From NCBI GenBank assembly GCA_029887795.1, contig JARXPE010000003.1:28600-92599 (forward strand): a stretch of DNA of 64,000 nucleotides, written 5' to 3'. The DNA is from Thermoproteota archaeon. Lineage in GTDB: Archaea > Thermoproteota > Methanomethylicia > Methanomethylicales > Methanomethylicaceae. The notes below the pieces were generated by a model. It saw only the letters and a list, made by a program, of their open reading frames with translations, searched no databases and was not told where the DNA came from. The position numbers were made by a program, and so were the translations under genes. Positions 16,590 through 46,996 of the stretch are shown here, in pieces. Positions within the stretch are counted from its first letter, which is position 1; each line of letters opens with the position of its first letter.

Positions 16590-16660
16590 AAAAATATAAA
16601 GTCTCAAAATTACTTTAATATAATTTATTTTAATTTCAGGATTGAGGGCAAGATTTTTAA
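16590..16660 (+). promoter_or_regulatory. Candidate archaeal BRE/TATA promoter of the mcrBGA operon
   Basis: Very AT-rich 160-bp spacer with TATA-like boxes (aaaaatataaag, ctttaatataattta) 50-110 nt upstream of the mcrB ATG. GAGAGG ribosome-binding site at 16695-16700. Confidence 0.3.
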
Positions 16661-16707
16661 CCTCCAGTTATCTATTCTCACGTAAGAAATCTACAGAGAG
16701 GAGTTTT

Positions 16708-18042
16708 ATGCCAAAATATCCGGACAAAGTGAACTTGTACGACGACCGCGGAAAACTTTTTGAGACAAACGTTCCAGTTGAGGCTCTGAGCCCACTGAAA
16801 AACACTGCTATACAAAAAATCATCGCTTACGTAAAGCAATGCGTTGCGGTTAACTTGGAAGGTGTGGAAAAGGCGCTAGCTACAGGAGAAGTCGGCGGAA
16901 AATGGTGCATCATTAGAGGTAGATCTTTGAAACTCGATCTGGTAAAGAACGCAGGCAGCGTGGCGGACTCTTTGAAGAAGTGCTTGCAAGTAGATCCCGA
17001 TGACGACACAGAAGTAAAGGTTCTAAAGGGTGGAAAGCACCTCCTCGTAAAGGTTCCAGCAAAGAGGTTAAACGCTGGAGTTGAGTACACTACCGGAGCA
17101 ACAGCAGTGGCTGCTGCCCTCTGCTGCACAATAATTGAGAACTTTAATGTGAACATATGGGATGCAGACCTAGTACACGCTGCCGTCTGGGGAAGGTATC
17201 CGCAGACCATGGAGATGCTGGGTGGAAATGTGTCTTCACTATTGGCAGTGCCACAACAAAATGAGGGTATGGGCTACGCCCTTAGGAACATACCATGTGC
17301 ACACATCGCTCTCATCGCAAAGAAGAACGCTATGAATGCTGCCGCCCTCTCATCGATCTTGGAACAGACTGCGATGTTCGAGATGGGTGATGCCATTGGT
17401 AGCTTCGAGAGGTTCCACCTCTTGGGTCTAGCCTACCAGGGATTGAATGCTGACAACATAGTCTACGACCTTGTGAAAGAGAATGCAAAAACTGGAACAC
17501 TCGGAGATGTTGTCATTTCAACAGTGAAGAGAGCCCTATCGGATGGTGTCATCAAACCCTTAAAGAAGACACCGTCTGGATACACGCTCTACACCACAAG
17601 CGATCTCAATAAGTGGAATGCCTATGCTGCTGCAGGTCTATTGGCTGGAACAATGATCACTTGCGGTGCTGCCAGATCTATGCAACACGCTCCATCAGTC
17701 TTCATATACTTTAACGACCTTTTGGAGAGGGAGACTGGACTTCCAGGTGTGGACTTTGGTAGAGTCACAGGTACAGGCGTGGAAATGTCATTCTTCAGTC
17801 ACTCAATCTATGGTGGAGGAAATCCTGCCGTATTCCACGGAAACCACATAGTGACTCGACACAGCAAGGGCTTCACCATTCCATGCGTTGCTGCTGCCGT
17901 GGCGCTTGATGCTGGAACCACCATATACACCCCAGAGAGGATCAGCGGCGTAGTTGGTGAGGTCCTGAGCGAGGTACCTGAGCTTAGAGAATCTTTACGC
18001 TATGTGAATGAGGCCGCGGTCTCAATAAAAGGAGGAGTCTAA
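16708..18042 (+). CDS. mcrB: Methyl-coenzyme M reductase beta subunit
   Basis: [15 protein letters not shown]..., ...ALRNI..., [49 protein letters not shown] are hallmark McrB blocks. Start at the ATG at 16708 behind a ribosome-binding site; the track start at 16642 is an over-extension. Confidence 0.95.
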
Positions 18043-18044
18043 AA

Positions 18045-18821
18045 ATGGTAGAATATAAGCCCCAATATTACCCTGGAGGATCAAATGTAGCCGCCAATAG
18101 GCGGAAATACATCGATCCCAACTACAAGCTAAGAAAGCTAAGAACAATAAGCGACGATGACTTAGTTCGATTAATGGGTCATAGGGTCCCAGGCGAGGCT
18201 TACAAGAGCGTCCACCCGCCACTGGAAGAACTTGGCGAGCCTACATGCCCAATCAGGGAGATTGTAGAACCTACGCCCGGGGCAAAAGCCGGTGACAGGA
18301 TTCGTTACATACAATTCACAGACTCTGTATACTTTGCCCCATTGACTCCCTACATGAGAGCTTGGATGGGTCATATGCGATACCGTGGAGTGGACATTGG
18401 TGTTCTATCGGGGCGTGTCCCTCTTGAGGCCAGAGAGCGAGATCTTGAGAAGGTTGCTAAGGAACTCGTTGAGACCGAGATCTTCGATCCGGCGAGGGTC
18501 GGGATCAGGGGTGCCACAGTTCACGGTCATGCTTTGAGGCTCGACGAGAACGGTCTCATGTTCGATGCCCTGCGCAGGTTCCAGTATGATAAGAACAAGG
18601 GCGAGGTCGTCTATGTTAAGGACCAGGTTGGAGTTCCGCTCGACAGACCGATATACGTAGGAAAACCCACCCCTGAAGAGGAGCTGAGAAAAATAACCAG
18701 CCAGTTCAGAGTTGACGGAGAAGCCTTCAGGAATGACAAGGAACTGATTGAGTTCGTTCAGAGGATTCACATGCTCCGAACGGAAGCAGGTTTCGATCCT
18801 AACAAGGTGAAAGATCTATAG
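18045..18821 (+). CDS. mcrG: Methyl-coenzyme M reductase gamma subunit
   Basis: [55 protein letters not shown] are McrG blocks; starts 2 nt after the mcrB stop. Confidence 0.95.
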
Positions 18822-18832
18822 GAGGAATTGTA

Positions 18833-20503
18833 ATGAGCGAAGAGAAGAAGATGTTCCTAGAAGCGCTCAGGAGAAAGTTCAAGGAGTCTCCTGAAGAGAA
18901 ACAAACAAAATTCTACATATATGACGGATGGAAGCAGTCAAAGAGAAAGAGGGAGTTCGTAGAAGCTGCTCAGAAAATAGCCAAAGAGAGGACCGTCCCC
19001 TTCTACAACCCTGACCTCCACCTCGGCGGCATCCCATTAGGGCAGAGAGTCTTGATGCCTTACCGTCTATCGGGTACAGACATCTATTGCGAGGGTGATG
19101 ACCTTCACTTCATAAACAACGCCGCCATGCAGCAGATGTGGCATGACATAAGGCGGACTGTGATCGTCGGACTCGATGCTGCGCACACGGTCCTACAGAA
19201 GAGGCTCGGCAAAGAGGTCACCCCTGAAACCGTGAACCACTATCTAGAGGTACTTAATCACGCGCTGCCTGGTGCGGCTGTAGTTCAGGAGCACATGGTC
19301 GAGACACACCCTGGATTGGTCTCTGACAGCTATGTCAAGGTATTCACAGGAGACGACGAGCTCGCGGACGAGATCGACGATAGATTTCTTATCGACATAA
19401 ACAAGGAGTTCCCTGCAGAGCACGCGGCACAGCTAAAGGCTGCCATCGGAAAACGCATTTACCAGGTATGCCGCATGCCAACACTCGTGGCGATGACCTG
19501 CGACGGAGGTACAATGTCAAGATGGGCGGCTATGCAGATCTCAATGTCAATGATAAATGCATACAAACTTATGGCTGGAGAGGCTGCGGTGGGAGAATTC
19601 GCCTTCGCAGCAAAGCACGCAGAAGTCATAGAGATGGGCACTCTTATGCCTTGGAGGCGAGCAAGAGGTCCCAACGAGCCCGGAGGAATTCCATTGGGCT
19701 ATATGGCGGATATCTGCCAGGCCTCGAGGGTCAAGCCCGAGGATCCAGTCTGGGTCGCCTTGGAAGCCATTTCCATGGCAGCTGTCCTATACGACCAGTT
19801 CTGGTTCGGAAGCTACATGTCTGGTGGCGTCGGGTTCACGCAATATGCAACTTGCACCTACACTGACAACATCCTTGATGACTTCTGCTATTATGGCGCC
19901 GAGTACGTTAAAAAGAAGTACGGCGGTTTCGCAAAAGTCAAGCCGAGCTGGGATGTGATAAACGATGTTGCCACGGAGGTCACATTATACGGTCTGGAGC
20001 AATATGAAAGGTACCCTGCGCTGATGGAGACTCACTTCGGAGGATCCCAGAGGGCTGCCGTAGTAGCAGCTGGTGCTGGCGTCTCCGTGTCACTGGTGAC
20101 CGGTCATTCCACTGCAGGAATCAACGGTTGGTACCTCAGCCAGCTACTCCACAAGGAAGAGATGGGTCGACTTGGCTTCTACGGCTACGACTGCCAGGAC
20201 CAATGCGGATCAGCCAACAGCTTCTCATGGAGGAGCGACGAAGGTCTACCCTTCAACCTGAGGGGAGTGAACTACCCCAACTATGCTCTCAATGTCGGAC
20301 ACCAGTCAGCATACTGCGGTATAGTCTCCGCCGCTCACGGTGGGAGAGGCGACGCTTGGACAACAAACCCGTTGATAAAAGTTGCCTTTGCAGATAAGGA
20401 TCTGAAATTTGACTTCACGCACCCGAGGCTATGCTTCGGAAAAGGCGCTCTCAGGGAGTTCATGCCAGCTGGCGAGCGCGATCTAATAATCCCAAGCCAC
20501 TAA
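18833..20503 (+). CDS. mcrA: Methyl-coenzyme M reductase alpha subunit
   Basis: [73 protein letters not shown] are McrA blocks. GGAGG ribosome-binding site precedes the ATG. Confidence 0.95.
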
Positions 20504-20531: not shown

Positions 20532-21119
20532 ATGACCGGATATTCATCGCTTAAGAGAATTTTTGAAATTATTGTCGACCTATCCAATTTAACGCCAGAG
20601 CTTGCCAAAGAAAAGTACTCTGAATTTCCATCACTTGCGAGTCATATTGCAATTTTATTTTCAAGAGACTATTTACACGATGTATTATCAAGGTTGGAAC
20701 TTCAACTGAGAATTGTGGAGAGCTATGATCCGCCCATCAGACCTGCGCTGGATCCTTACTCTTCTACACAACTTGGCATCTTCAGCAAGAACTTCTCTGA
20801 CTGGGAAATTGGACGCCTACTCAATTATCCAGCGTGCTGCATCGATTCGTTTTCCGAAGAACTCCGTTATGGATTAGACTCGAAACATTTAGAGGAACTG
20901 AACACTATAAAAGAAGAGGTTGTATTCGTCACAACTGCGGGATTTGTGCCCCACAGCATATTTTGTAAAGAAGCGTCAGAGAGCGCACTTATTGGCCTCC
21001 TGAAGTTAGACGCGTTGAAAGTATTAAATGATCTGGAGAAGGAGCTTGCACGCAGGCTCCCTCATGCTCACCCGGAATACCAAAAACACTATTATGACAT
21101 GCTAATCCCAGATGTCTAA
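20532..21119 (+). CDS. Conserved archaeal protein with a YPACCIDSF Cys-pair motif (DUF483-like, tentative); probable fourth gene of the mcr operon
   Basis: 195 aa, same strand, 28 nt after the mcrA stop. Family name is from memory only. Confidence 0.45.
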   Translation: MTGYSSLKRIFEIIVDLSNLTPELAKEKYSEFPSLASHIAILFSRDYLHDVLSRLELQLRIVESYDPPIRPALDPYSSTQLGIFSKNFSDWEIGRLLNYPACCIDSFSEELRYGLDSKHLEELNTIKEEVVFVTTAGFVPHSIFCKEASESALIGLLKLDALKVLNDLEKELARRLPHAHPEYQKHYYDMLIPDV

Positions 21120-21945: not shown

Positions 21946-21958
21946 AAGTTAGCCCTCT

Positions 21959-22270
21959 TCATCCAGCACCGCACACGTTCCCACTGGTATCTATTTTGCC
22001 CTCGTCTCTGATTTCAGGTGTTTCGGATTTCTCTTTTTCAACCTCTTTTATTTTCTCTTGTTCCACTTCTTTTTCCATCTCTTGCCTAGGCTCTTTTACA
22101 AAATCCTCTTCAACCGTTTCTAGAAAGTCCTCATCGTAAAATAGTCCTGTTGAATCCAACTTAGCCCAGACTTTGCCATCCATTTCTCTCAATTCAACAA
22201 TTCTGCCGAGGGTACCAGTCCTTTTGTATATAACTGATGCCCCTTCCCTGAGCACACTTTGCCCCTCCAC
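21959..22270 (-). CDS. Small protein with an acidic EKE-rich tail (KOW-like N-terminus), hypothetical
   Basis: 103 aa; N-terminal beta-rich ...GTLGRIVELREMDGKVWAKLDSTGLFYDEDFLE, then a low-complexity acidic C-terminus. Confidence 0.35.
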   Translation of the reverse strand: MEGQSVLREGASVIYKRTGTLGRIVELREMDGKVWAKLDSTGLFYDEDFLETVEEDFVKEPRQEMEKEVEQEKIKEVEKEKSETPEIRDEGKIDTSGNVCGAG

Positions 22271-22325
22271 AAATATTTAATAAATTCTTATGCATTTTCT
22301 TTCCTATTAATCTGAGGGGTCCCAC

Positions 22326-23255
22326 TTGGAAGACCTTAAAGAGATTGTGAGCAAGACAAGATCGTACAAAGGGCTATCAAGAAAGGCCCAGATTGGGGAG
22401 ATTGTTAATATACTTGGCGAGGTTGACTATGACGACGCTGGAATATTGAATGTGGAAGGACTCAATATTGTGGTTTCTACAGACGGCATAGCAGAGGATC
22501 TAGTCAAGTCTGATCCTTGGTTTGCTGGGTATTATTCTGTCCTTGTTAATGTCAATGATGTGGTGATAAAGGGTGCTAGACCTCTTGGATATGTGAACGT
22601 TATATCTGGACCTAGAGAGATTAGGAACAAGATGGCAGAAGGCATAAAGGCTGGACTTGAAAAGTACAACGTCAAACTGCTCAAGGGTCATACACATCCG
22701 GACTCTTCATACGCGGCAATTGACGCCGCGGTGGTTGGAATAGCAAAAAAGGTCGTAAGGGGAACCGACGCCCGTCCTGGCGACGAAATTGTGATGGCCA
22801 TCGACCTTTCAGGATCGTTTGGTCTAAAGGGCTGGGTTAAATGCTTTGATAGTACAGTTAAAAAGTCATCTAAACAAGTTCAAGATATGATCTCTGCCAT
22901 AATCTCTGTCATAGAAACTGGAAAAGTGCATTGTTCTAGGGACATAAGTGCCCCTGGAATATTAGGAAGTCTGGCAATGTTATGTGAGGCTAGTGGTGTT
23001 GGAGCAGAAGTCTCTCTGGACAAGATCCCTGCCCCAAAAGGCTCTTCGCTTTCTGAGTGGTTGACTTCATACCCTGCAATGGGATTTATATTTGGCTCCT
23101 CTACTTCCAATGTCTTTGAGACCTTGAAGAATTCTGGTTTCTCTGTGGAATCTGTAGGTCGCTTCACAGCCGACAAAAAAATAATCGTGTCTATGGATCA
23201 TAAAAAAGAAATCTTCATGGATCTAGCGAGGGAGTCTGTCTTCGGATTGAGATAG
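22326..23255 (+). CDS. AIR-synthase-related (PurM/HypE/ThiL-like) protein; candidate methanogenesis marker protein 2
   Basis: VVSTDGIAEDL and downstream glycine-rich segments characteristic of the PurM-like N and C domains; TTG start; lies in the MCR island. Confidence 0.55.
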   Translation: MEDLKEIVSKTRSYKGLSRKAQIGEIVNILGEVDYDDAGILNVEGLNIVVSTDGIAEDLVKSDPWFAGYYSVLVNVNDVVIKGARPLGYVNVISGPREIRNKMAEGIKAGLEKYNVKLLKGHTHPDSSYAAIDAAVVGIAKKVVRGTDARPGDEIVMAIDLSGSFGLKGWVKCFDSTVKKSSKQVQDMISAIISVIETGKVHCSRDISAPGILGSLAMLCEASGVGAEVSLDKIPAPKGSSLSEWLTSYPAMGFIFGSSTSNVFETLKNSGFSVESVGRFTADKKIIVSMDHKKEIFMDLARESVFGLR

Positions 23256-24851
23256 TTCCGCGATCTCCTCTGGGGAGAAGGAGTTCACGACTTCACATAC
23301 GGGGCCCCTCATTGCTATCTTCCCGTCTCTGAGCAGTAGCGCTTCGTCACAGGTATTCATGACAAACCCCATATCGTGCGAGACTATTAAAAAAGTCTGC
23401 CGGAGCTCGTGCCTTGCATTCTTTATTGATTTGGAAACATCCTGCTGCGTTATTGGATCCATTGTGCCGGTAGGCTCGTCTAATATTACTAGGATCGGCT
23501 CTCTTATTAGGACTTGGGCAAGCGCGACCCTATGCCTCTCGCCCTCGCTCAACTCATCAGGGTACTTATTCAAAATAGGCTCTATCAGACTTTCTTGGAA
23601 ACCAGCCGCTCTCAAGACCATGGCTGCCTTGAATTTGGCAAATTCGTCTGGCAATTCAAGCCCGATGGCATCAGTAAGGTTCTCTTGCACAGTCCTGTGT
23701 GGATAAAGCGAGTACTCTTGGTGAAGCAAACCGATGTATGGCGTCGCTCTGCCGCGCCCCATAGGCCCTGGTTGTAACATGTCCACCCATTCATCACCTA
23801 TCCTCAGCCAGACCCTGCCAGATGTCGGTTCCGTAAGACCTGCAATGATCCTCGAAAGCGTCGTCTTCCCTGCCCCACTCATCCCTACAATGCCAAATAT
23901 CTGCCCCTCCCTAACCTCAAAGGAGACGTCATCTAGCGCTCTAACAACCCCTTTGTCTATGGAGAAGTAATGCTTCTTCAGCCCCTCTACCCTGAGTATT
24001 GTATCTCCCGCCTCTGCGGGCACCTCTTTTGATATGGTTTCTGCCTCTGATAGGAACTCCCTCACGATTTCCTTCGGGTCTCCTATGACCTTCACACTTC
24101 CGTTCTCTAACAGTATTGCCCTCTCACTCAAAGCTTCTACTGCCTCGGGCAGGTGTGATGTGACCAGCATGGTTATGTTTTTACCCTTGACCTCTTCGTT
24201 CAATATCCTGTATACCATCCTTGCACTCAGCGGATCGAGCGTCCCCGTGGGTTCGTCTGCCAGCAACAGTATGGGTCTTATTGCCAACTGCCTGCCTAGT
24301 ACGACCCTCTGCTTCTCACCACCACTGAGATCCCTCGCCGCATGGAGTAGCCTATGTTCCAGGCCCATCCTCTTGGCAAGCTCGAGCGCCTTGCGCCCAA
24401 CATCGGCATTCTCGAGTTCAGCTTTCTCTAACGCCTCAACAAAATTCTCGTACACGGTGAGGCTGCCGTAAAGAGCAAAGGTTCTTTGAAACATTATTGC
24501 TATCCTATTTTTAATGTCTTTGGCTGACTCCCTATCCTCCCAGAAGTCTACCTCAATAAGTTCCATCTTTCCACAACATCTAGGACAAACCTTCCCTGCC
24601 CTGCTAGGCCCCTCAACGAAGCCACATTCCTTGCATGATGCTACTCGGTATATCACTTTACCTGCCGTGGGAGCATATTCTCCAATCCCTTTAAGCATTG
24701 AGAGAAGCACACTCTTACCAGAACCGCTCTTCCCAAGAATCCCGACTCTTTCGCCTTCGCGAATTACTAGTGACACATCCTTGAGAACGTAATGCCCGTT
24801 AAACTTTTTGGAAACGCCATCTACGATGATCAATGCCTCCCTCATCGTCAT
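23223..24851 (-). CDS. atwA: MCR system component A2 (AtwA-like): soluble tandem ABC ATPase with a Zn-ribbon insert
   Basis: Two full ABC cassettes (GKSGSGKS/LSGGEKQRV/LLLADEPT and GMSGAGKTT/LSEGERHRVALAQVL/ILDEPTG) with no transmembrane domain. CKECG...CPRCCG insert in cassette 1. Next to ycaO-tfuA. Confidence 0.7.
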   Translation of the reverse strand: MTMREALIIVDGVSKKFNGHYVLKDVSLVIREGERVGILGKSGSGKSVLLSMLKGIGEYAPTAGKVIYRVASCKECGFVEGPSRAGKVCPRCCGKMELIEVDFWEDRESAKDIKNRIAIMFQRTFALYGSLTVYENFVEALEKAELENADVGRKALELAKRMGLEHRLLHAARDLSGGEKQRVVLGRQLAIRPILLLADEPTGTLDPLSARMVYRILNEEVKGKNITMLVTSHLPEAVEALSERAILLENGSVKVIGDPKEIVREFLSEAETISKEVPAEAGDTILRVEGLKKHYFSIDKGVVRALDDVSFEVREGQIFGIVGMSGAGKTTLSRIIAGLTEPTSGRVWLRIGDEWVDMLQPGPMGRGRATPYIGLLHQEYSLYPHRTVQENLTDAIGLELPDEFAKFKAAMVLRAAGFQESLIEPILNKYPDELSEGERHRVALAQVLIREPILVILDEPTGTMDPITQQDVSKSIKNARHELRQTFLIVSHDMGFVMNTCDEALLLRDGKIAMRGPVCEVVNSFSPEEIAELSQSEDRLPR

Positions 24852-24892
24852 GCACCAAAGAACACGATTATTAATGAGATGTGATATTTAAG

Positions 24893-25552: not shown

Positions 25553-25577
25553 AACCTTCTTCACACTTTCGATTTTT

Positions 25578-26783: not shown

Positions 26784-26892
26784 GAAATCACGCCCATCGA
26801 CATTTTTGCCTCTAATTGTATTTTTATAGGATTACCATCCGTATCAATATTAGTCCCATGACTACAAAATCATTTGCGAATGATCAGCGGGA

Positions 26893-36713: not shown

Positions 36714-37268
36714 TTACTCTTGATCTCCACCCACACCAACAACTATCGTCCCGATATTGGGATCGTCCTCAGAGACTCCAAACTTCTTCTTCAAATAAAG
36801 ATCTGCAGGGGGAGACGGGCTTCCTACAACTATTCCCAAACCTGCTAACTCAGGTATTTGAAGGGGGAGCATGATTAAGCTGATCTTGTCAATCTTCTCT
36901 TTTATCAGACGCATCTTGTCTTTGTAGAATACAAGGTTTCCCATAACAATATTGCCCTCATTTTTTAGCTTTTCCAACTCCCCCTCATCATAGACGTCCT
37001 CACCAATGGTTTCCTCATCGCAGACTATCTTTACGAGCGACGTCTTTGGCCATCTGAGACTTGCGTTGGTTATACAGGCATAAACGGCTTTCTTGCGAAG
37101 GGCCTCTCTGACACCCAAATTTATGCCTTTGCATAGTCCCATTAAGACCTTTCCCTCAGCCTCCCTCTCTAGCCTTTCGATCTCAGCCCGGTCCTCTTGG
37201 CTTAAGAGTGTAGCCTTTATGATTCCCTTCAGTCCCATCAATTTTTCCAGAACATTACCTTCTGACAT
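36714..37268 (-). CDS. Uncharacterised protein; last gene of the mmp/A2/RACo operon
   Basis: 184 aa; overlaps the 3' end of the RACo-like gene by 14 nt, which suggests cotranscription. Confidence 0.4.
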   Translation of the reverse strand: MSEGNVLEKLMGLKGIIKATLLSQEDRAEIERLEREAEGKVLMGLCKGINLGVREALRKKAVYACITNASLRWPKTSLVKIVCDEETIGEDVYDEGELEKLKNEGNIVMGNLVFYKDKMRLIKEKIDKISLIMLPLQIPELAGLGIVVGSPSPPADLYLKKKFGVSEDDPNIGTIVVGVGGDQE

Positions 37269-39156
37269 ATCTCCTCACGACCCTTGGTGCCTTAACATTG
37301 GCTACTACCTCAGGAAAATCTTCCAGTTTACTATTGGGCATGTACATGGCATTAACGTATTCCTCCTCAAAAATTGGTTCTGCTGCCAGCTCTACATACT
37401 TAACCGCCTTCGCGATAGCCCCTGCCTCACACCTCATCTCTACTGATTTGAGGCACATCCTCGCACCAGATCCAGCTGTATTCCCCAAAAATGAGATCTT
37501 GGATATTGGCAGCTCCGGTATCATCCCTATCGTTCTGGCATTCTCGGGATCTATGTAATTCCCAAAAGCGCCAGCTATTATTATCCCCGATAGGTCTTCT
37601 CTCCTGAAACCACTCTTTCTCATGAGCGTCATGTACCCTGCATACATCGCAGCTTTTGCCTTCTGAATCTCCCTAATGTCCTCCTGAGTTATTACAATGT
37701 CCTCTTTTCCGGATGCTGTATCCTCTTTAAACACCAAGACAAACTCCTTTCCGTCTGCCCCGTCCCTGATCCTCTTATGATCTTGAAGCACGATCTTTCC
37801 TGACATATCAATTACTCCTCTTTTGAGCATCTCCGCGACCGCGTCTATTATGCCCGAACCACAAATGCCTCTGGCTCTCTCTCCGTCTATAGTATTGTAC
37901 TCCACCTCAAAATCCTCTCCAATCTTGACTTTTTCTATGGCGCCGCTGGCGGCTCTCATTCCGCATTTGATGTGTGCCCCTTCAAATGCTGGACCTGACG
38001 CGGTCGAGCATGACCATAGCCCCTCCTTACATCCCAATACTACCTCGGTATTTGTTCCTACATCCATTAGCAGCGTCAACCTCTCCTTCTCATGTATTCT
38101 AGACGCTAAAATATCCGCTATCGCATCAGCCCCGACAAAACCCGCAACGTTTGGGAGCGTATGAATATTGCCCGCCGGGTTTATCCTAATGCCCAAATCC
38201 CTAGCTCTGACATTGTAAGCATTCCCCAAAACTGGGGGGTAAGGTGAAAATCCGAGTGACCTGACATTAAGCCCCAAGAAGAGGTGATGCATCGCTGTAT
38301 TTCCCACAGCCACAAGCTCGTAGAGGTCTTCTCTCCTGATACCTGTTTCCTCAAGCCCTCTATCTATGAGTGAATTTATGCCGTCGATTATTGCTTTTTG
38401 AATTTCTCTAAGGTTTTCATCAGACTGGGAGGCGTATCCTATCCTTGATATGACATCTTCTCCATACCTTATCTGCGGATTCATTATGCCATCTGCGAAT
38501 ATGATCCCTCCATCCAATAAGTCCACTATGAAGACGGCAAGCTTGGTTGTACCTATATCCACTGCTACCCCATAGAGTTCTTTGGTTCTGTCCCCCAGCT
38601 GAATATTCACAATCTCATGATTATTCAAGATTGTAAAAGTAACCTTCCAATCACCCTCCCTTAGTATCTTTGGCATCTTCTTAATGGTATCATAATCTAT
38701 TAGAACTGGATCAAACCCCATTCCTGCCAGGACCTGGGCGATCCTGACATCGTCTCCCTTAGGATCTTGAAGAGAGGGTGGCAAAACTTCCACATAGACT
38801 TTTTTGACGTTCGGCCTCAGAGTGATTGCAGGCTCCTTGCCCATTATCACGAGCCTCTGTCTCCCGACCCTGCTTTGGTCTGGTACTTGGACCACCATGT
38901 CCTCCTCAACAATTAACTGGCACGCCAGGCGGTAGCCTTTTCTTATTCTCTCATCACCGACCCTTTTCTTCTCTTGTTCAGTAGGGGGCGGGGCTCTTCC
39001 CTCAAGTATTTCAACTAGACATTTACCGCAGAAACCCTTTCCGCCGCAGATGTTTGCCAAATCGACTCCTGCCCTCAGTGCCGCAAACATGACAGTGGAT
39101 CCTGCGGGGACTGAAACCCTCTTCCCCTCAGGCAAGAACTTCACTTCAAACTCCAT
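37255..39156 (-). CDS. RACo/RamA-like ATP-dependent reductive activase (N-terminal 2Fe-2S ferredoxin domain plus ASKHA ATPase/DUF4445)
   Basis: N-terminal plant-type ferredoxin Cys pattern (CGGKGFCGKC...C). Central VAVDIGTTK and DVGTNTE ASKHA phosphate motifs. Start ATG overlaps the stop of the upstream A2-like gene (atggagtttga). Confidence 0.65.
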   Translation of the reverse strand: MEFEVKFLPEGKRVSVPAGSTVMFAALRAGVDLANICGGKGFCGKCLVEILEGRAPPPTEQEKKRVGDERIRKGYRLACQLIVEEDMVVQVPDQSRVGRQRLVIMGKEPAITLRPNVKKVYVEVLPPSLQDPKGDDVRIAQVLAGMGFDPVLIDYDTIKKMPKILREGDWKVTFTILNNHEIVNIQLGDRTKELYGVAVDIGTTKLAVFIVDLLDGGIIFADGIMNPQIRYGEDVISRIGYASQSDENLREIQKAIIDGINSLIDRGLEETGIRREDLYELVAVGNTAMHHLFLGLNVRSLGFSPYPPVLGNAYNVRARDLGIRINPAGNIHTLPNVAGFVGADAIADILASRIHEKERLTLLMDVGTNTEVVLGCKEGLWSCSTASGPAFEGAHIKCGMRAASGAIEKVKIGEDFEVEYNTIDGERARGICGSGIIDAVAEMLKRGVIDMSGKIVLQDHKRIRDGADGKEFVLVFKEDTASGKEDIVITQEDIREIQKAKAAMYAGYMTLMRKSGFRREDLSGIIIAGAFGNYIDPENARTIGMIPELPISKISFLGNTAGSGARMCLKSVEMRCEAGAIAKAVKYVELAAEPIFEEEYVNAMYMPNSKLEDFPEVVANVKAPRVVRRYVRR

Positions 39157-40828
39157 GCTTCGCCTCACCAAAATATCTGTTTATAACATCTTTTGGCTCG
39201 CCATCCATTATAACCTTCCCGTCCTTGATCAACACGCACCTATCAGCAACTTCCTCTACAAATTCTAATTGATGGCTGACCAGGATTATGGCTGGCTTGA
39301 ACCATATCTTTATCCTCTTGAGGAGGTTAGCTACCCTCCTAAGGGTCAAAGGGTCTAGATCCCCAAAGGGCTCGTCCAAAATCAAGACTTTGGGATTCGA
39401 TACCAAAGAGAGTGCCAAGGCGACCCTTATCTTCTCCCCACCAGACAATTGATAGGTTTTCTTTGTAAGTACCCCTTCGGTCATTCCGAACCATTCAAGG
39501 ATTTTTAAAGCCAACTCCTTTGCCTTCTCCGGATCTTTTTCTTTGAAGATCTCCTTTAAGAGGCTCCTGTCAAGCCCTGCCTCTTTGAGTTTTATCTCCA
39601 TCTCCCCTTCTGGCAGTTCTGCAAGCCTTCCCAGAACGTCAACCACCGCATCACTTATCCCCTTTCTCTCAGCCCTGCGAACCGCCTCCTCAAGCGACCT
39701 ATAGTCCTTTATTCCTATGAGCGCTGCAAAGAGTTCAAGTACGCTTGACCAGTAAGGGAGGTCGAACTCTTGGTGGAGAATTCCTATCCTCCGCCTCGCC
39801 CTGAGGCTCTTTCTCCCAAACTTCCCCAGAGGGACCCATTCTCCCCTGTAAAAGATCTTAACATCCCCTGCGTCTGGCAACTCTAAACCCGCCAACATCC
39901 TCATTATGACAGTCTTGCCAGCGCCAGAAGGTCCTACAATGCCCGTTATTTCCCCAGTTCTGAAATTTAGAGTGGTCTCCTTTAACTCAAAGACCTTACC
40001 ATACGGAACTAGTTTGTAAACCTTCCTCGTTTTTTCAATTTTGAGGACATCCTCCCCAAGGATCTTTACCTTACTAAGAGGCTCTTCAAGTCTGGAAAGA
40101 AAGCTCTCCACCACGGTTCTGGTTTCCCCCTCCATTGAAACCCTTCCCTTCTCAAGGAGTATGGCCCTGTCTGCCAAGGACATGTGAATTGAAGGATTAT
40201 GTGAGACGAAGAGGACGCTCATTCCGTACTCGTCCCTTGCTCTCTTCAAAGCATCAACCAATGCTGCCCTACTCTGGAAATCTGTCATAGTCCCAGGTTC
40301 GTCCAAGAGCAGGAGTCTTGGCCTTCTAGCGATCTGTCTAGCCACAATCAACCTTTGCTTTTCACCACCGCTGAGAACTCCTGACCAGAGATCTGCTCTA
40401 CTTTCCAGTCCCACAACCTTCAAGACTTCCATCGCCCTTGCCCTGTACTCCTCATACTCTCCTTCGTCTTGAGGAATTACCTCATCCCCGATATCATAAT
40501 ACACAAGCGCCCTCACCACGTTGTCCACAACGGAATCTGGCCACAGACCGAAGGTTCTCTGGAGCTGTATTGCAGTCCTTCTTTGTAGTTCCAGAAAAGA
40601 CTCTTTCGGGGAGTCCGGATTAACTTCGAGGTCTTCAAAGACTATTCTTCCGCCGTCGAAACCCTCAACACCCCTAAGAATTCTCAATAACGTTGTTTTG
40701 CCCGCCCCGCTCTCACCTAGGATTCCAACAATCTCGCCCCTGTCGAGTCGGAAAGAGACGGAGTCGAGCACCTTAAAGCCAGAAAAACTCTTGATAACAC
40801 CATCACACAAAAGCAACAATCGTATCAC
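39146..40828 (-). CDS. Second AtwA-like soluble tandem ABC ATPase (component A2 paralogue) with a long helical insert in cassette 2
   Basis: GESGAGKTT/LSGGEKQRLIVARQI/LLLDEPG and GPSGAGKT/LSGGEKIRVALALSL/ILDEPFG; no transmembrane domain. Roughly 80-aa insert (KDYRSLEEAVRRAERKG...KILEWFGM) between the Q-loop and the signature motif. Confidence 0.6.
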   Translation of the reverse strand: MIRLLLLCDGVIKSFSGFKVLDSVSFRLDRGEIVGILGESGAGKTTLLRILRGVEGFDGGRIVFEDLEVNPDSPKESFLELQRRTAIQLQRTFGLWPDSVVDNVVRALVYYDIGDEVIPQDEGEYEEYRARAMEVLKVVGLESRADLWSGVLSGGEKQRLIVARQIARRPRLLLLDEPGTMTDFQSRAALVDALKRARDEYGMSVLFVSHNPSIHMSLADRAILLEKGRVSMEGETRTVVESFLSRLEEPLSKVKILGEDVLKIEKTRKVYKLVPYGKVFELKETTLNFRTGEITGIVGPSGAGKTVIMRMLAGLELPDAGDVKIFYRGEWVPLGKFGRKSLRARRRIGILHQEFDLPYWSSVLELFAALIGIKDYRSLEEAVRRAERKGISDAVVDVLGRLAELPEGEMEIKLKEAGLDRSLLKEIFKEKDPEKAKELALKILEWFGMTEGVLTKKTYQLSGGEKIRVALALSLVSNPKVLILDEPFGDLDPLTLRRVANLLKRIKIWFKPAIILVSHQLEFVEEVADRCVLIKDGKVIMDGEPKDVINRYFGEAKHGV

Positions 40829-40900: not shown

Positions 40901-41812
40901 TCACGAGAAATAGGACTCTGGCAAGATCCTAACAAGTATGTAATCCCTCATTTGAGATCTTGTTATACGAGATAGTTCATCGAGCCTTTTTCCCTCAACG
41001 ACCACAGAGGCAACTTTCTCCTTGTACTCGTCGTACGGCAACTTAATCCTGACGCCGTCGACCTTCAATGTTACTGGATTTGGTGAGAGGGCGTCCAAAA
41101 CTTCCGGAACCTGCCTCTCCACCTCGTTCTTTACAAGCGCTGGCTCTATTATTAATGGATCCAAATCCATTTCCCTCCGCCTTCCCTCGATCAGTTTTCC
41201 TGCTAGCTCTGAGACCCTTCTCAACTTCTCTATCATGTCTACAGTTCTTGCCCTCTCTGGATATCTCCCTATTCCTCCAACATAACCACTCGCTCCCTCC
41301 ACCTCCAGTTCGGGTGGTCCGCCAGTCACTATCACTGGTACGGATAACTCCTTGAACAACTTTGGCTTAAATCTCCTCAAACAGTGCTCAAAGTTCCCGA
41401 GCGTAAAAACTGCGAGATCATGTTCTTCAATAAGCTGCCTCTCCTGTACTGATGTATGCACTATCTTCTGACCTACTCCCCTAGCCAGTCCCATTATGTT
41501 TGTCTTTGCACCGTGCCTCCTCAAGTTCTCAGCTATATCACAGGCAGGGTGTGGAAGGTGGTGCCTGGATAATGTAGGGGCCACAACTACAACCTCGGTT
41601 CCTATGAGTGGGGCATCTCTGAGCTTGCCCTTTACCTCTTGGACTATTTCTTGCAACCTTCCAACTTCTTCCTCTGGGATCGCCAAATTCATTATTAGGT
41701 CCAGTCCGATCACAGTCTTTTGTATCACAAAGCCTCCAACATCTTCTACAAACTCCAGTAAAAGTTCATGCTTATACATGCCGCCCTCAAAGATGACATA
41801 TTTTAACATCAC
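40901..41812 (-). CDS. Candidate methanogenesis marker protein 7
   Basis: 303 aa; size, operon position (with marker 17-, marker 3- and A2-like genes) and composition fit Mmp7. Assignment by context and memory. Confidence 0.45.
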   Translation of the reverse strand: MMLKYVIFEGGMYKHELLLEFVEDVGGFVIQKTVIGLDLIMNLAIPEEEVGRLQEIVQEVKGKLRDAPLIGTEVVVVAPTLSRHHLPHPACDIAENLRRHGAKTNIMGLARGVGQKIVHTSVQERQLIEEHDLAVFTLGNFEHCLRRFKPKLFKELSVPVIVTGGPPELEVEGASGYVGGIGRYPERARTVDMIEKLRRVSELAGKLIEGRRREMDLDPLIIEPALVKNEVERQVPEVLDALSPNPVTLKVDGVRIKLPYDEYKEKVASVVVEGKRLDELSRITRSQMRDYILVRILPESYFS

Positions 41813-42360
41813 TCGTCCACCGCCAAATCAGCAGCCATTTTCTTCCAATCCTCTCTGATGGGGTCCTCCGCAGCCATAACAGTCAGAAGATCGCCTTCCT
41901 TAATCACGTGCCGAACCCTGAACCCTTCGGGTATCACTCTATTCACGAGTTCGTTCACCTTATCCGAAACACTTACCCTCTCCTTCTTTATTTTGAGCTC
42001 CTTCAAACTCTCTGGCTCTGCGCCTCTCACCACGATCTCTGTTCTTCCAGATTGCTCGACCTTGTCTCTTCCATAAGTGCTCCACAGACTTCTAAGCGCA
42101 TCTCCAAGGTCAATCTCATCCTCTAATATGACCCTCACGCTACCAGATCTTGCCTCTATCCTTGCTAGCTCCCCTATCTTATTCTTGATCTCGCGCTCCC
42201 TATATTTGACCTTCATTACAAAGAGCGGGAACTCGGGCTTTATCAGGACTGCAATCCCTGTTACACTATTCCCTAGCGCTAGATCCTCCACGTTTCTCTC
42301 AACAATATGTCTATACATCTCTCCCCCCGTGTTGTCTGAAGAGACCACGACTATCTTCAT
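41809..42360 (-). CDS. Candidate methanogenesis marker protein 17
   Basis: 183 aa; 4-nt overlap with the downstream gene; context-based assignment. Confidence 0.4.
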   Translation of the reverse strand: MKIVVVSSDNTGGEMYRHIVERNVEDLALGNSVTGIAVLIKPEFPLFVMKVKYREREIKNKIGELARIEARSGSVRVILEDEIDLGDALRSLWSTYGRDKVEQSGRTEIVVRGAEPESLKELKIKKERVSVSDKVNELVNRVIPEGFRVRHVIKEGDLLTVMAAEDPIREDWKKMAADLAVDE

Positions 42361-42361
42361 C

Positions 42362-42781
42362 TTAGCTCCCCCCTGCCTCCTCCACTATCTTCTTAAGCTT
42401 CGAGACGTCCAACCTCGTTTTCGGCTCTGTTTCCTTTATCTCCAATACACCCTCTGCCTCAAGCGCCTTTGATACATTCTTCAGCACATTCCTCTCGGCA
42501 CCCAGCATAAAATACCCTGGTCTTGGTCCTCCTCCCCTCTTCGCCCTACATATCCTCTCGTCCCCAATCCTGTAGCCCCTCACCTTGAAGAATATTCTGT
42601 TAGGGTCCATTTCCCTCAATGCTTTCATTACCTTCTCCAACTCCGCCTCTTCTCCCTCTATTAAAACTCCATAGCAGGTCTCCTTGTAATTAACTCCGCC
42701 CAGCGCTGCCACTTTTTCCATAAGCATAGAAGGTGTTAGATTCGAGTCTGGCGATAACATCACCACAAAAGTCTTTATCAT
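42362..42781 (-). CDS. Small conserved protein, candidate methanogenesis marker 5/6 family
   Basis: 139 aa; sits between the marker 3-like and marker 17-like genes; translationally coupled. Confidence 0.35.
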   Translation of the reverse strand: MIKTFVVMLSPDSNLTPSMLMEKVAALGGVNYKETCYGVLIEGEEAELEKVMKALREMDPNRIFFKVRGYRIGDERICRAKRGGGPRPGYFMLGAERNVLKNVSKALEAEGVLEIKETEPKTRLDVSKLKKIVEEAGGS

Positions 42782-44301
42782 GCCCCCTCCTCCATAATGT
42801 ATACCTTTCTCCCTTCCCTCAGACCATTCAATATGGCGAGATTTTCCAGAACTCTGCCGACAATGTTGGTTCCATCAAAGCTTTCTGCCGTCGGACCAAA
42901 CTTGTCACTCTCCATTAGTCTGATACCGACCATTCCGGCGAACTTCTTAACAGAGTTTGTGACCCCTATTATTCCGGAACCGACTTTACCCTTGGGAAGA
43001 TTCTCGGGCATAAGGCCTTTTCCCAAACTCTCATCACCTTTAAAGAGAACAACTTCCTTCGTTGAAAAGAATACCTCTAGACGCCCAACGCGTCTAAGAT
43101 CTAAGCCAGTGACTCTCCTGAAGTATTTCACAGAGATCGGAGCATATCTCTCATTTAACTGAATCTTCAAGATCTGATCACGAGGAAGTCCTGTACATCT
43201 GACAACCCCTTGCTTGTATATCTCTACCGTGGTAGCTGGTGAGTGGTCCACTACGATCCCATCATCCCCTAAATAGCCCTCCCTGACATGGATGATTCCT
43301 GCCCTCTCTAACGCCCCTTTTACCTCTCCTTGGGTTCTCCCAAGAAGATCTAACCTCTCTGGAATTAGAACCGTTTGTATCATATCTCCTTCCTTGGCAA
43401 CATCAGCAAGCTCAATTCCACTGACGACTCGCCCAGCTATCACGTGATCTTTTGAGATTGCCGACTTCTGAAGATATATGTAAACCAACCCTGCATTATT
43501 ACCGGAGCTTCTGACAGAAACGACCCCCCTTTCTCTACTCCCCACATCCTCGCTTTTTATGGAGAGTAGTCTGATTTTATCATGCGCAATAAAGCGGCTA
43601 GTCTTTCTGGCGACTGTAAAACCTTCGCTCAGCGCGTTATATACATGTTCCACACAAATAGGAGACTGAGGATTTAGTTGTATCTCCATTTTTGTAAATA
43701 TCATGTCGCCCTCGTTTAACTTGTAATCATTTTTGACCCGTACTAGCGATCCAGGATCAGACTTTTTCTCCCAGACTGGTAAAATCTTATTAATTTTATC
43801 TCCAATCCTGAAAGCCTCAAGCAAGTGCCTGCCATAAACTACGCGCCCCAGGACTCTGCAGCCCTTCGGTGGAAAGTAAAGCGCGCTATGGGTCCGCTTA
43901 CTGAATACAAGGTGCGAGCTCTCATTGCTGGAACCTGAGAGGCTCACAGTAATTTCATATCTTCGCAACTCGACCTCTTCTTTGGAAGGCAGGAATTCTG
44001 TTTTGGTGGGTCCAAATACCACAGCATCGATAGTTGCCCACCTGACACCACATCCTTCAAAGCTCTTGTAAGCCTGCTTCCACTTTTCTAACTCATCATC
44101 GCACTCCCACCTTAGTATCATCCTGCCTCGCGTTGTATGAACCTCATAAAGGTTTGTGGGGATGCGCTCTACATCTATTTTTCTTTTGACGGCAACTATG
44201 TAGCCTTCTTTGACTTTAATGCCCGATCTCTCCAAAAAATCCCCCAAGCTTTCATCTTTTCGCGCTTCCATTTCGACGCCATCAACTACTACTCTCAACA
44301 C
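42778..44301 (-). CDS. Candidate methanogenesis marker protein 3 (UPF0288-like), first gene of the activation operon
   Basis: 507 aa; size and position fit Mmp3; transcribed divergently from mcrDC. Confidence 0.5.
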   Translation of the reverse strand: MLRVVVDGVEMEARKDESLGDFLERSGIKVKEGYIVAVKRKIDVERIPTNLYEVHTTRGRMILRWECDDELEKWKQAYKSFEGCGVRWATIDAVVFGPTKTEFLPSKEEVELRRYEITVSLSGSSNESSHLVFSKRTHSALYFPPKGCRVLGRVVYGRHLLEAFRIGDKINKILPVWEKKSDPGSLVRVKNDYKLNEGDMIFTKMEIQLNPQSPICVEHVYNALSEGFTVARKTSRFIAHDKIRLLSIKSEDVGSRERGVVSVRSSGNNAGLVYIYLQKSAISKDHVIAGRVVSGIELADVAKEGDMIQTVLIPERLDLLGRTQGEVKGALERAGIIHVREGYLGDDGIVVDHSPATTVEIYKQGVVRCTGLPRDQILKIQLNERYAPISVKYFRRVTGLDLRRVGRLEVFFSTKEVVLFKGDESLGKGLMPENLPKGKVGSGIIGVTNSVKKFAGMVGIRLMESDKFGPTAESFDGTNIVGRVLENLAILNGLREGRKVYIMEEGA

Positions 44302-44580
44302 ATCATCCCTATCCTTCTCAAATGAAGTTCCATTAATTAACCTTTATAGAAATTCAACCTATTTTTGTGTATTTGCTTTTGCCTAGGGCTTTGCCAAAAT
44401 CAGCAAGAAAACCTCTGAGCATCAAAGATGGGCTTCTCAATTTTTCGCCAACGTCCTCATCCTGACTTAAATTTTTTTGTTTTACTATTCCGTATCAACT
44501 TTTAAAAGACTTGGATGATCTACCACCGCCTAAGCAACTATTTATTTATTCGATCCTATTAATAGCCTAGGGGTTATACT
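44302..44580. promoter_or_regulatory. Divergent promoter region between the mmp3 operon (-) and mcrDC (+)
   Basis: 279-bp AT-rich spacer with TATA-like boxes on both strands (ttatagaaatt, tttatttatt). Confidence 0.3.
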
Positions 44581-44898
44581 TTGGAAACAAAAGACAAGCC
44601 TGAAATTGAGATCCTGCCTAGGCGACTTATGCCAAGCAAAAAAGCCGAGGATTTTGCTGCACTGTTGAAGGACACTGGAATGGTCTCGGAGGTCCTATTC
44701 CAGAGGCACAACTACTCCGGAGGAGGGTATATGGTAGGAAGGTTCATTCTCTTAATATCCGAAAATTCGCCAGAAACTGTTATTGGTAAGATCAAACCAT
44801 TGTGCGAACAGGTTATGCCGTATGGCTATGACATCAGAGTAGGTCGCTTCACCAAACCTAGACCTACTGTAAAAGATTACTTGGCTGGAAGGGTGTAA
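44581..44898 (+). CDS. mcrD: McrD-like protein (short form, 105 aa)
   Basis: EIEILPRRLMPS...AEDFAALL and C-terminal MPYGYDIRVGRFTKPRPTVKDYLAGR match conserved McrD blocks; TTG start; lacks the usual C-terminal roughly 40 aa. Confidence 0.55.
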   Translation: METKDKPEIEILPRRLMPSKKAEDFAALLKDTGMVSEVLFQRHNYSGGGYMVGRFILLISENSPETVIGKIKPLCEQVMPYGYDIRVGRFTKPRPTVKDYLAGRV

Positions 44899-44917
44899 AG
44901 GTTTAGGGGCGATTTGC

Positions 44918-45559
44918 TTGGACGAAGCTATTGGAAGGAGCTCTCAGATCGTGGATTGTCGGGAAGCTCAGGGCATAGGGGAGGGTGGCGGACTCGCCCA
45001 ACGTGGGACGATTTCGGAATCGGAACGCTTCGACGTGGTCGCGGTTGCAATGTCTCCTTCTAAAAGACATATCACAAAACCCATCTGTGAAATAACTTAC
45101 GGTCTAAGGGAACAGGGCATCAGAACGAGCGTCTTAGTTCTCGAGTCTGGATCAGGGGTGCCTTCCGACTCGCCCTATGGAGGCGCACCAGGTGGAACAA
45201 TGGCTGGAATCAACGAAAAAGAGATACTCCAGATAAGAAGATACAAACTCGCCCTATTCCACTTGGGCGGCATTGGGGGACATGTTGTCTATAAAGCTAA
45301 AACCTTTCTGCGATATGTCGACATCCCCACCATTATAGTCTGTGAGGCACCTGTAGACTATGAGGATTTTGCCAAGGTTGGGATCATCACCCGACTTGTA
45401 CGCCCGCCTCCCGATAAGGTCGAATGCCTAGGAACGATTGTCGATATTGTGACTGGCGTTGTGAGGGGTGTCAGCGCACCGCGCGACAAACTCAACGAAA
45501 TAGTGACAAAAGTAAAATTTTGGCTTAGCAAATTTGATGAGGAACATAAAAAAAGGTGA
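44918..45559 (+). CDS. mcrC: Methyl-coenzyme M reductase operon protein C
   Basis: VDCREAQGIGEGGGLAQRGT, VAVAMSPSKRHITKPICEITYGLRE, LFHLGGIGGHVVYKAKTFLR, IIVCEAPVDYEDFAKVGI are canonical McrC blocks. Confidence 0.85.
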   Translation: MDEAIGRSSQIVDCREAQGIGEGGGLAQRGTISESERFDVVAVAMSPSKRHITKPICEITYGLREQGIRTSVLVLESGSGVPSDSPYGGAPGGTMAGINEKEILQIRRYKLALFHLGGIGGHVVYKAKTFLRYVDIPTIIVCEAPVDYEDFAKVGIITRLVRPPPDKVECLGTIVDIVTGVVRGVSAPRDKLNEIVTKVKFWLSKFDEEHKKR

Positions 45560-45566
45560 AATTAAA

Positions 45567-46043
45567 TTGGCAAAGATATTCATATTTCCGCCCAACAGCC
45601 TGATTCTCTTTGACTTAGTGAAAAGGGAGGGTCATACCCCCTTGGGGTTGGGGGAAGAGGTTGCAAAGAATGTAAACAGACCCGAGATCGATTCTCCACC
45701 AATGAACATAACTCCTGACTTCCCTAGGAGAGGTCTAAAATACGCTGCCATAGAGGTCCCTTCAGGCGTTAGGGGGAGGCTGGCGCTGATCGGTCCTCTT
45801 GTTGAGGAGGCAGATGCCGCCATTATTGTGGAAGAACCAGAGGCACTTTTCGGGTGTGCCAGTTGTGGAAGAACAAACGAATTTCTAATTTACCTAATAA
45901 AACAGCGCAACATACCTTTCATTAAAGTTCCATATCCTTCTACAGAAGAAGATGCGAGAATCATGGTTTCAAAAATAAGAAAATTTCTCTCATCACTCAA
46001 TGAAATCCAGAAGACAAATACAACGATGGCGACGAAGACATAG
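45567..46043 (+). CDS. Conserved small protein cotranscribed with mcrDC (uncharacterised)
   Basis: TTG start 8 nt after a GGTGA ribosome-binding site that lies inside the mcrC 3' end; 158 aa; CASCG motif. Confidence 0.4.
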   Translation: MAKIFIFPPNSLILFDLVKREGHTPLGLGEEVAKNVNRPEIDSPPMNITPDFPRRGLKYAAIEVPSGVRGRLALIGPLVEEADAAIIVEEPEALFGCASCGRTNEFLIYLIKQRNIPFIKVPYPSTEEDARIMVSKIRKFLSSLNEIQKTNTTMATKT

Positions 46044-46747: not shown

Positions 46748-46996
46748 TCATTCATAATACTTTAATGTCTCCTTCAATTTTTCAAAAATAAACGCTTTTG
46801 CCTTTATCAACTCCTCCCTATCTCCTATAAGCACCCAAGCCATCGGAATGGCGTCCCCATCAACGGGTGATGGTGCTTGTATAGGCTTTTCTGCGAGTTC
46901 AACTTTAAATCTATGTGTTGCCTCGGCTATGATTGAGTAGGGAGTCCCTGGAGGTATGGGCATAAAAAAGCCCTTCTTTTTATCTTCATTTTCCAT
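46748..46996 (-). CDS. Hypothetical protein
   Basis: 82-aa ORF; no motif recognised. Confidence 0.3.
   Translation of the reverse strand: MENEDKKKGFFMPIPPGTPYSIIAEATHRFKVELAEKPIQAPSPVDGDAIPMAWVLIGDREELIKAKAFIFEKLKETLKYYE

Follow-up and report, generated by a model that had tools for sequence, protein, structure and literature searches.

Whether a McrD-like protein of only 105 amino acids (aa) can be a genuine assembly protein of methyl-coenzyme M reductase (MCR), and why its gene stands beside mcrC and a third gene at a distance from the structural genes mcrBGA, are the questions raised by a locus in a Thermoproteota archaeon of the family Methanomethylicaceae. The locus lies at positions 44302 to 46043 of a 64,000-nucleotide (nt) stretch of contig JARXPE010000003.1 (assembly GCA_029887795.1, positions 28,600 to 92,599), hereafter called the window. 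Biogenic methane comes almost entirely from MCR, and both the expression of this enzyme in other hosts and the design of inhibitors are limited by how it is assembled and activated. The analysis identified the 105-aa protein as a genuine but minimal McrD (mini-McrD). The locus is best read as the usual MCR maturation gene cluster of the class Methanomethylicia (Verstraetearchaeota), consisting of an mcrD-mcrC-mmp5 operon and a divergent mmp3 operon, with mini-McrD serving as a chaperone; we assign this reading a probability of about 85%.

In the open reading frame (ORF) listing, the interval 44581-46043 was filled by three ORFs on the same strand, corresponding to mcrD, mcrC, and mmp5 (Table 1), and family membership was established by profile scores for every gene of the locus. 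The mcrD stop and the mcrC start were separated by 19 nt. The TGA stop of mcrC (45557-45559) was located within the sequence GGTGA (45555-45559), and the TTG start of mmp5 (45567) began 7 nt later. The three genes form a tightly coupled tricistronic operon, which is divergent from an operon of mmp3, mmp6, mmp17, mmp7, an A2-like ATPase gene, and a gene for a RACo-like activase. The mcrBGA genes were found about 24 kb away; mcrD and mcrC are thus detached from the structural operon. An initial annotation, made from the sequence alone, had described a 105-aa ORF followed by mcrC after 19 nt, the detachment of both genes, the coupling of the third start to the mcrC 3' end through GGTGA, and a 279-bp divergent region shared with a marker 3-like operon. 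These physical observations were borne out by the coordinates: the mcrBGA block contains neither mcrD nor mcrC, and the marker 3-like gene encodes a true Mmp3. The same annotation was mistaken about the length of mcrC, the identity of the third gene, and the site at which McrD is shortened.

The arrangement was compared across the class by scanning one genome per GTDB species, which turned up 22 loci from Methanomethylicia, one from "Bathyarchaeota" (L024), and one from Methanopyri. A tblastn synteny map covered 23 Methanomethylicia loci, 22 of which were distinct (L001 and L010 represent the same contig); the flanks were incomplete on the upstream side of L005, L011, and L018, and L022 ended before mmp5. 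Directly after mcrD, mcrC was found in 23/23 Methanomethylicia loci, and the order RACo-ABC-Mmp7-Mmp17-Mmp6-Mmp3 followed divergently by McrD-McrC-Mmp5 was retained in all 20 loci with complete flanks. Among them are those of two complete genomes, CP130488.1 and CP186953.1 (Ca. Methanosuratincola petrocarbonis LWZ-6 and Ca. M. verstraetei LCB70); the synteny set also contained the first metagenome-assembled genomes (MAGs) of Methanomethylicus, V1 and V3. The mcrD-mcrC gap was at most 41 nt in 12 of the 13 loci examined for spacing, with an apparent overlap in L007, and the mcrC-mmp5 junction ranged from +7 to -32 nt in the same 13 loci. The layout is the class-wide norm for Methanomethylicia, in which all maturation genes are consolidated around mcrC and not around mcrBGA, and the oddity implied by the initial annotation is weaker than it had suggested. 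The locus is ordinary, well explained, and already annotated: NCBI and JGI name the orthologs McrD, and NCBI does so for near-identical proteins. Its mild interest lies in the naturally minimal McrD.

The three genes of the operon all start with TTG (44581, 44918, and 45567). The same codon recurred at most mcrC and mmp5 starts in 13 loci of distant Methanomethylicia (among L002-L023); the exceptions were one ATG and one GTG for mmp5, and one mcrC match started inside the gene. A weak start codon is used here unusually consistently for a coupled operon.

The 105-aa ORF matched Pfam MCR_D (PF02505) with 40.8 bits over profile positions 72-119 of 142, compared with a gathering score of 25 bits, and its best sequence matches in the PDB (phmmer) were the McrD entries 8w33 and 8gf5. 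A GGGG Shine-Dalgarno-like motif was found at 44570-44573, and the TTG start of mcrD follows 7 nt downstream. An upstream extension or a frameshift restoring a long McrD was considered and excluded by an in-frame TAG at 44563-44565 (18 nt upstream of the start) and by the presence of only 19 nt between the stop and mcrC. Neither outcome that the initial annotation had named as refuting it was seen: the ORF matches MCR_D, and an extension upstream is impossible. Mini-McrD has kept its N-terminal strand, PEIEILPRRL, and, at the C-terminal side, the GRFTKPRPTVKDY motif; both conserved blocks, already noticed in that annotation, aligned to the McrD proteins of Methanomassiliicoccus luminyensis (MlMcrD, 8W33) and Methanosarcina acetivorans (MaMcrD, 8GF5/8GF6) and to 20 diverse McrDs. 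The AlphaFold2 (AF2) model (pLDDT 80.4) was a compact, ferredoxin-like βαββαβ fold in the order β8-13, α19-31, β35-45, β49-59, α64-78, and β83-88. Fourteen homologs of 105-113 aa were retrieved, the closest being 99% identical, and those with a named source were all from Methanomethylicaceae or Verstraetearchaeota. In the window and in 23 related loci, mcrD was located immediately upstream of mcrC, that is, close to another mcr gene.

The reduction of mini-McrD affects two parts of the protein. In the phmmer alignment to MlMcrD, residues 6-38 and 51-104 aligned to its two ends; an internal stretch of 8w33 was without counterpart, and the C-termini lined up. In the alignment with the 20 diverse McrDs, the segment between V38 and G53 comprised 14 residues in the window protein versus 42 in every canonical McrD, and an intermediate class of McrDs had 25-31 residues in the equivalent segment. 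The 28 absent internal residues correspond to loop 5 and β4/β5; in their place, the AF2 model joins the two central strands by a GGG turn. At the other site, the DY motif was followed by 5 residues, compared with 28-45 in most McrDs and 4-6 in the Methanomassiliicoccales type, and a C-terminal tail or domain of about 30-45 aa was absent. This domain is not universal in the McrD family, as it is also absent in the Methanomassiliicoccales-type McrD. The earlier statement that the C-terminal third of McrD is missing was correct as far as this tail is concerned and overlooked the internal loss of the 28-aa wedge, the part of the reduction that says more about function. In the McrD-MCR structure of M. 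acetivorans, loop 5 is inserted as a wedge between MCR γ and α', McrD β4 is paired with the displaced N-terminus of McrA, and a tunnel around this McrA strand is predicted to be closed by the C-terminal domain (PMC10288656; PMC11301259).

The two partners of mcrD in the operon are complete members of their families. McrC matched TIGR03264 with 288.2 bits (equivalog cutoff of 213.5 bits) over profile positions 1-192 of 194, and residues 5-201 aligned to 8s7v_I, the McrC chain in the structure of the M. maripaludis activation complex (E 2.8e-73); these results contradict the earlier description of mcrC as shortened. The IVDCR and KP(I/V)CEITYG motifs aligned exactly with those of 8s7v_I and place the cysteines at C14 and C57. 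The ligands of the [8Fe-9S-C]-type cluster in M. maripaludis McrC are C12 and C55 (PMC12176620). Against Pfam MCR_C, McrC matched only positions 72-184 of 271, and the Mmp7 paralog spanned all 271. The partial match reflects a 271-position model that fits the longer Mmp7 paralog end to end; it is an artefact of the model, not a truncation of McrC. Judged by its alignments, McrC is intact and keeps both cluster-ligand cysteines.

The third gene had been described as having an unknown function, with a comparison to Mmp5 and Mmp6 profiles proposed as a check. The Mmp5 profile TIGR03271 matched over its full length (208.9 bits, positions 1-142 of 142; cutoff of 140.25 bits), as did PF09885 (DUF2112; 203 bits, full profile). 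The ORF could open at 45534 (169 aa), and the family profile begins at TTG 45567 (158 aa). We retrieved 884 Mmp5 homologs, and the identity to the Methanocaldococcus Mmp5 was 60-64%. Among 25 diverse Mmp5 sequences, 42 columns were invariant, including the CxxC pair C97 and C100. The AF2 model (pLDDT 78.7) showed a generic flavodoxin-like fold, for which a fold search found no informative structural neighbour. On these profile matches, the third gene is assigned to Mmp5, a member of the known MCR activation operon.

By analogy with Methanococcus and Methanosarcina, McrC, Mmp7, Mmp17, and Mmp3, together with component A2 and the DUF2098 protein (the last two encoded elsewhere in the window), would form an ATP-dependent complex. 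Electrons would pass via three [8Fe-9S-C]-type clusters and reduce the Ni(II) of F430 to Ni(I), and Mmp5 and Mmp6 would be apparently essential accessory members of the activation operon. McrD, acting in trans, would be the assembly chaperone that keeps apo-MCR open for F430 insertion. In an M. acetivorans ΔmcrD strain, F430 occupancy is about 36% of the wild-type level. Mini-McrD would most likely recognise the unfolded McrA N-terminus by its β-sheet and C-terminal motif alone, with no wedging between γ and α'; this mode is suggested by a bare core that lacks the wedge and the C-terminal domain and keeps both motifs.

Several points weigh against the chaperone reading. The 105-aa protein scored 43.7 bits against the TIGR03260 equivalog, under its cutoff of 100, and the significant profile alignment was limited to the C-terminal half of the protein (residues 51-101). 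Both MCR-contacting elements of the only McrD-MCR structure are absent, so that assigning the same function to mini-McrD would be an extrapolation. Demonstrations that McrD binds apo-MCR and aids F430 insertion come only from Methanosarcina and Methanococcus (PMC10288656; PMC9584954), and no reports of expression, interaction, or F430 binding for this lineage were found in the literature searched. A second McrD was sought within the 64-kb window by tblastn with nine canonical or intermediate McrDs, which matched only 44599-44958; a canonical mcrD may be located elsewhere in the genome. For the promoters, two conserved A/T-rich boxes in the divergent spacer are likely the TATA elements of the two operons, a candidate assignment drawn from conservation only.

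The same structural losses would suit a different role, in which mini-McrD changed its job and joined the reductive activation complex, as one of its subunits or as an adaptor, for example holding the McrA N-terminal latch that is also engaged by McrC, Mmp3, and A2. Such a role would agree with the near-zero spacing of mcrD, mcrC, and mmp5 in one operon throughout the Methanomethylicia loci, and with the recognition of the same McrA N-terminal region by the activation complex and by McrD (PMC12176620). We consider it unlikely, as the purified M. maripaludis activation complex was without McrD (PMC12176620) and the adjacency of mcrD and mcrC is ancestral, being present already in the canonical mcrBDCGA operon. 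In addition, the short mcrD of L024 is beside neither mcrC nor mmp5, and wedge-less McrDs are likewise known from ANME-1c, whose mcrD lies alongside mcrABG.

It is very improbable that the ORF encodes an unrelated small ferredoxin-like protein of the CutA/PII kind, misnamed McrD via a short motif. CutA and PII were among the Foldseek matches, and the restricted MCR_D profile match would fit such a misnaming, but the top four Foldseek matches in the PDB were all McrD (8w33_A/B and 8gf5/8gf6_X; E 3.5e-6 to 7.7e-5; query TM score 0.65-0.68), compared with TM scores of 0.44-0.50 for CutA. The N-terminal PEIEILPRRL block, outside the profile match, also aligned to both structurally characterised McrDs, the lengths form a continuous series from short over intermediate to canonical McrDs, and the gene always adjoins mcrC in Methanomethylicia loci.

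The mcrD gene is functional and under purifying selection: its reading frame was intact in 19/19 loci examined (105-114 aa from the conserved start), 17 columns were invariant among orthologs down to 41% identity, and the pairwise ratio of nonsynonymous to synonymous substitutions (dN/dS) among close relatives was 0.03-0.11. This range includes pairs with unsaturated dS (window versus L003, dN 0.07 and dS 0.76; L002 versus L005, dN 0.021 and dS 0.55). The start, the Shine-Dalgarno-like motif, and the coupling to mcrC were conserved in relatives as well. That the ORF is a decaying, truncated pseudogene without function is the least probable of the alternatives and in effect refuted by the conservation and the dN/dS values. 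Its 30-40% shorter length than typical McrDs, its score below the TIGR03260 cutoff, and its faster divergence than its neighbours (46-90% identity versus 81-97% for McrC) are set against the intact frame, the low dN/dS, the invariant columns, the conserved start region, and a compact, confidently predicted fold.

The locus adds no new component to MCR maturation. Mini-McrD is a strongly conserved natural McrD that lacks both proposed MCR-contacting elements and occurs in a lineage with cultured representatives; therefore, it lends itself to testing which part of McrD is truly needed. A further-reaching conjecture, which we regard as rather unlikely, is that the bare ferredoxin-like core and the GRFxKPxPTVxDY motif are the functional heart of McrD and that the wedge and the C-terminal domain are dispensable; mini-McrD would then be made stoichiometrically with McrC and Mmp5, physically coupling F430 insertion and Ni(I) activation on the McrA N-terminal latch.

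Table 1. Positions of the maturation genes and putative promoter elements in the window.
Feature	Position	Strand	Evidence and remarks
mcrD, minimal (wedge-less, tail-less)	44581..44898	+	105 aa, TTG start, Pfam MCR_D
mcrC, full length	44918..45559	+	213 aa, TTG start, TIGR03264
mmp5 (methanogenesis marker protein 5, DUF2112)	45567..46043	+	158 aa, TTG start, TIGR03271 and PF09885
Divergent intergenic region, 279 bp	44302..44580		Ends conserved in close relatives, middle variable
A/T-rich box AACTATTTATTTAT	44536..44549	+	About 38 nt upstream of mcrD start; putative TATA/TFB-recognition element (BRE)
Box TTAATTAACCTTTATAGA (+ strand letters)	44333..44350	-	About 40 nt upstream of mmp3 start; putative TATA
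mmp3	42778..44301	-	TIGR03268, 484.7 bits (cutoff 234.45), full length
mmp6 (DUF2102)	42362..42781	-	TIGR03272, 136.4 bits (cutoff 125.95); PF09875
mmp17 (DUF2113)	41809..42360	-	TIGR03291, 122.9 bits (cutoff 67.1); PF09886
mmp7 (McrC paralog)	40901..41812	-	TIGR03274, 388.8 bits (cutoff 349.15); PF04609, full 271 positions
A2-like double ABC ATPase, component A2 paralog	39146..40828	-	TIGR03269, 333 bits, below cutoff 517
RACo/AcsV-like [2Fe-2S] ATP-dependent reductive activase	37255..39171	-	NF040756, 533 bits (cutoff 800)
mcrB-mcrG-mcrA	16642..20503	+	TIGR03257, TIGR03259, TIGR03256, all far over cutoffs
DUF483 protein (orf195)	20532..21119	+	28 nt after mcrA
DUF2098 protein	21959..22270	-	PF09871, 76.8 bits; between mcrBGA block and Mmp2-like gene
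Component A2 (AtwA), bona fide	23223..24851	-	TIGR03269, 766.5 bits (cutoff 517); beyond Mmp2-like gene

In the divergent operon, the RACo-like gene overlaps the ABC ATPase gene by 26 nt, and both hold their position in 20/20 Methanomethylicia loci with complete flanks. Fer2 and RACo domains were found in the L001 ortholog of the RACo-like protein. The pair could use ATP to supply the activation complex with low-potential electrons; alternatively, it could simply be the corrinoid activase of these methylotrophs. The ORF that immediately follows the RACo-like gene (36714-37268, minus strand; 184 aa) had no match in Pfam or NCBIfam.

The spacer between mmp3 and mcrD varied between 67 and 829 nt in relatives. 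The mcrD-proximal box was conserved, with few substitutions at most, in the window, L002, L003, L004, and L006, and the mmp3-proximal box was conserved with few substitutions in L002, L003, L004, and L006; each is unique in the window. Insertions were observed in the spacers of L002 (7172-8000, 829 nt) and L004 (7282-8000, 719 nt), with the end boxes retained, and the L004 insert encodes a remnant resembling the zinc-ribbon C-terminus of TnpB.

Within 30 kb, the window contains almost every known MCR maturation gene. A second maturation block (21172-28149) encodes a HAD/P-type-ATPase-like soluble protein, an Mmp2-like protein, the true A2, TfuA, YcaO (thioglycine formation), and Mmp15; the Mmp2-like, AIR-synthase-related protein scored below its cutoff. 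The DUF483 gene is likely the fourth gene of the mcrBGA operon, and its product (orf195) was considered as a divergent McrD and ruled out, as it belongs to DUF483. In L024, a DUF483 homolog was found near the short mcrD, ycaO, and A2-like genes. The DUF2098 family corresponds to the 10.6-kDa small subunit bound by a loop of McrC in the M. maripaludis activation complex (PMC12176620).

Just downstream of mmp5, on the minus strand (46748-46996), lies a gene for an MJ0093-family (PF27275) protein of 82 aa, and this gene occupies the same position in most Methanomethylicia loci; in three close relatives, a DUF167 gene was found in its place, with no match to orf82. This protein was considered as a split-off McrD tail or as a DUF2098 protein and rejected, since it showed similarity to neither and belongs to PF27275. 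In L024, an MJ0093-family homolog (8315-8650) shares its strand with the short mcrD and overlaps the stop codon of that gene, which suggests a functional link between the MJ0093-family protein and mini-McrD. An Rfam scan of the whole window returned no matches.

Mini-McrD shares with MlMcrD and MaMcrD the ferredoxin-like βαββαβ core, the N-terminal (E/D)(I/V)xI(F/L)PxRL strand, the C-terminal GR(F/Y)xKxxPTVxDY motif, and a gene next to mcrC, and with MlMcrD the absence of a C-terminal domain of about 30 aa. Unlike both, it lacks the 28-aa insertion between the βαβ halves, which in MaMcrD wedges between γ and α', its gene is outside the mcrBGA operon, and its score is below the TIGR03260 cutoff. 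It is 105 aa long; the native M. luminyensis McrD has 139 aa, and the canonical McrDs in the alignment have about 140-185.

McrDs that have lost the wedge, including the ANME-1c McrD, were noted by Chadwick et al. 2023 (PNAS, SI Fig. S17), and the ANME-1c McrD is also discussed in a preprint (bioRxiv 10.1101/2022.07.04.498658). Mini-McrD shares with those variants the complete or partial loss of the inter-βαβ insertion and a variable or absent C-terminal domain. Short wedge-less forms of 103-114 aa were found in Methanophagales/ANME-1c, one of 113 aa in a Thermoprotei MAG, and intermediate McrDs in Korarchaeia (Methanodesulfokora, 130 aa) and a "Lokiarchaeota" MAG. A profile search of 1.84 billion representatives yielded 41 proteins with continuous lengths of 86-184 aa, plus one 532-aa match. 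A wedge-less, tail-less minimal McrD is an already known type of variant, not a new one. The genomic contexts differ: in ANME-1c, mcrD is with mcrABG; in the L024 lineage, the short mcrD is beside an MJ0093-like gene and mtrEDC, not by mcrC or mmp5; and here, it is part of the mcrD-mcrC-mmp5 operon. We found no literature on McrD in Methanomethylicia or on McrC in Methanosuratincola.

Operons consisting of mcrBGA only, with accessory genes in trans, have been documented (PMC9584954; PMC9081873), and McrC and McrD act in trans (PMC9584954). The "MCR activation operon" of M. acetivorans comprises Mmp5, Mmp6, Mmp17, Mmp7, Mmp3, Mmp15, and A2, and is apparently essential (bioRxiv 10.64898/2026.03.18.712670). 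The families of the activation operon and complex of M. acetivorans and M. maripaludis were all found in the window, and the ligand cysteines of McrC are kept. Compared with the gene order in those two species, mmp5 has moved beside mcrC, and mcrC and mcrD are out of mcrBGA. The true A2 and mmp15 are 15-20 kb away, together with ycaO and tfuA, and the mmp3-mmp7 operon is extended by two additional genes, for an A2-like ATPase and a RACo-like activase.

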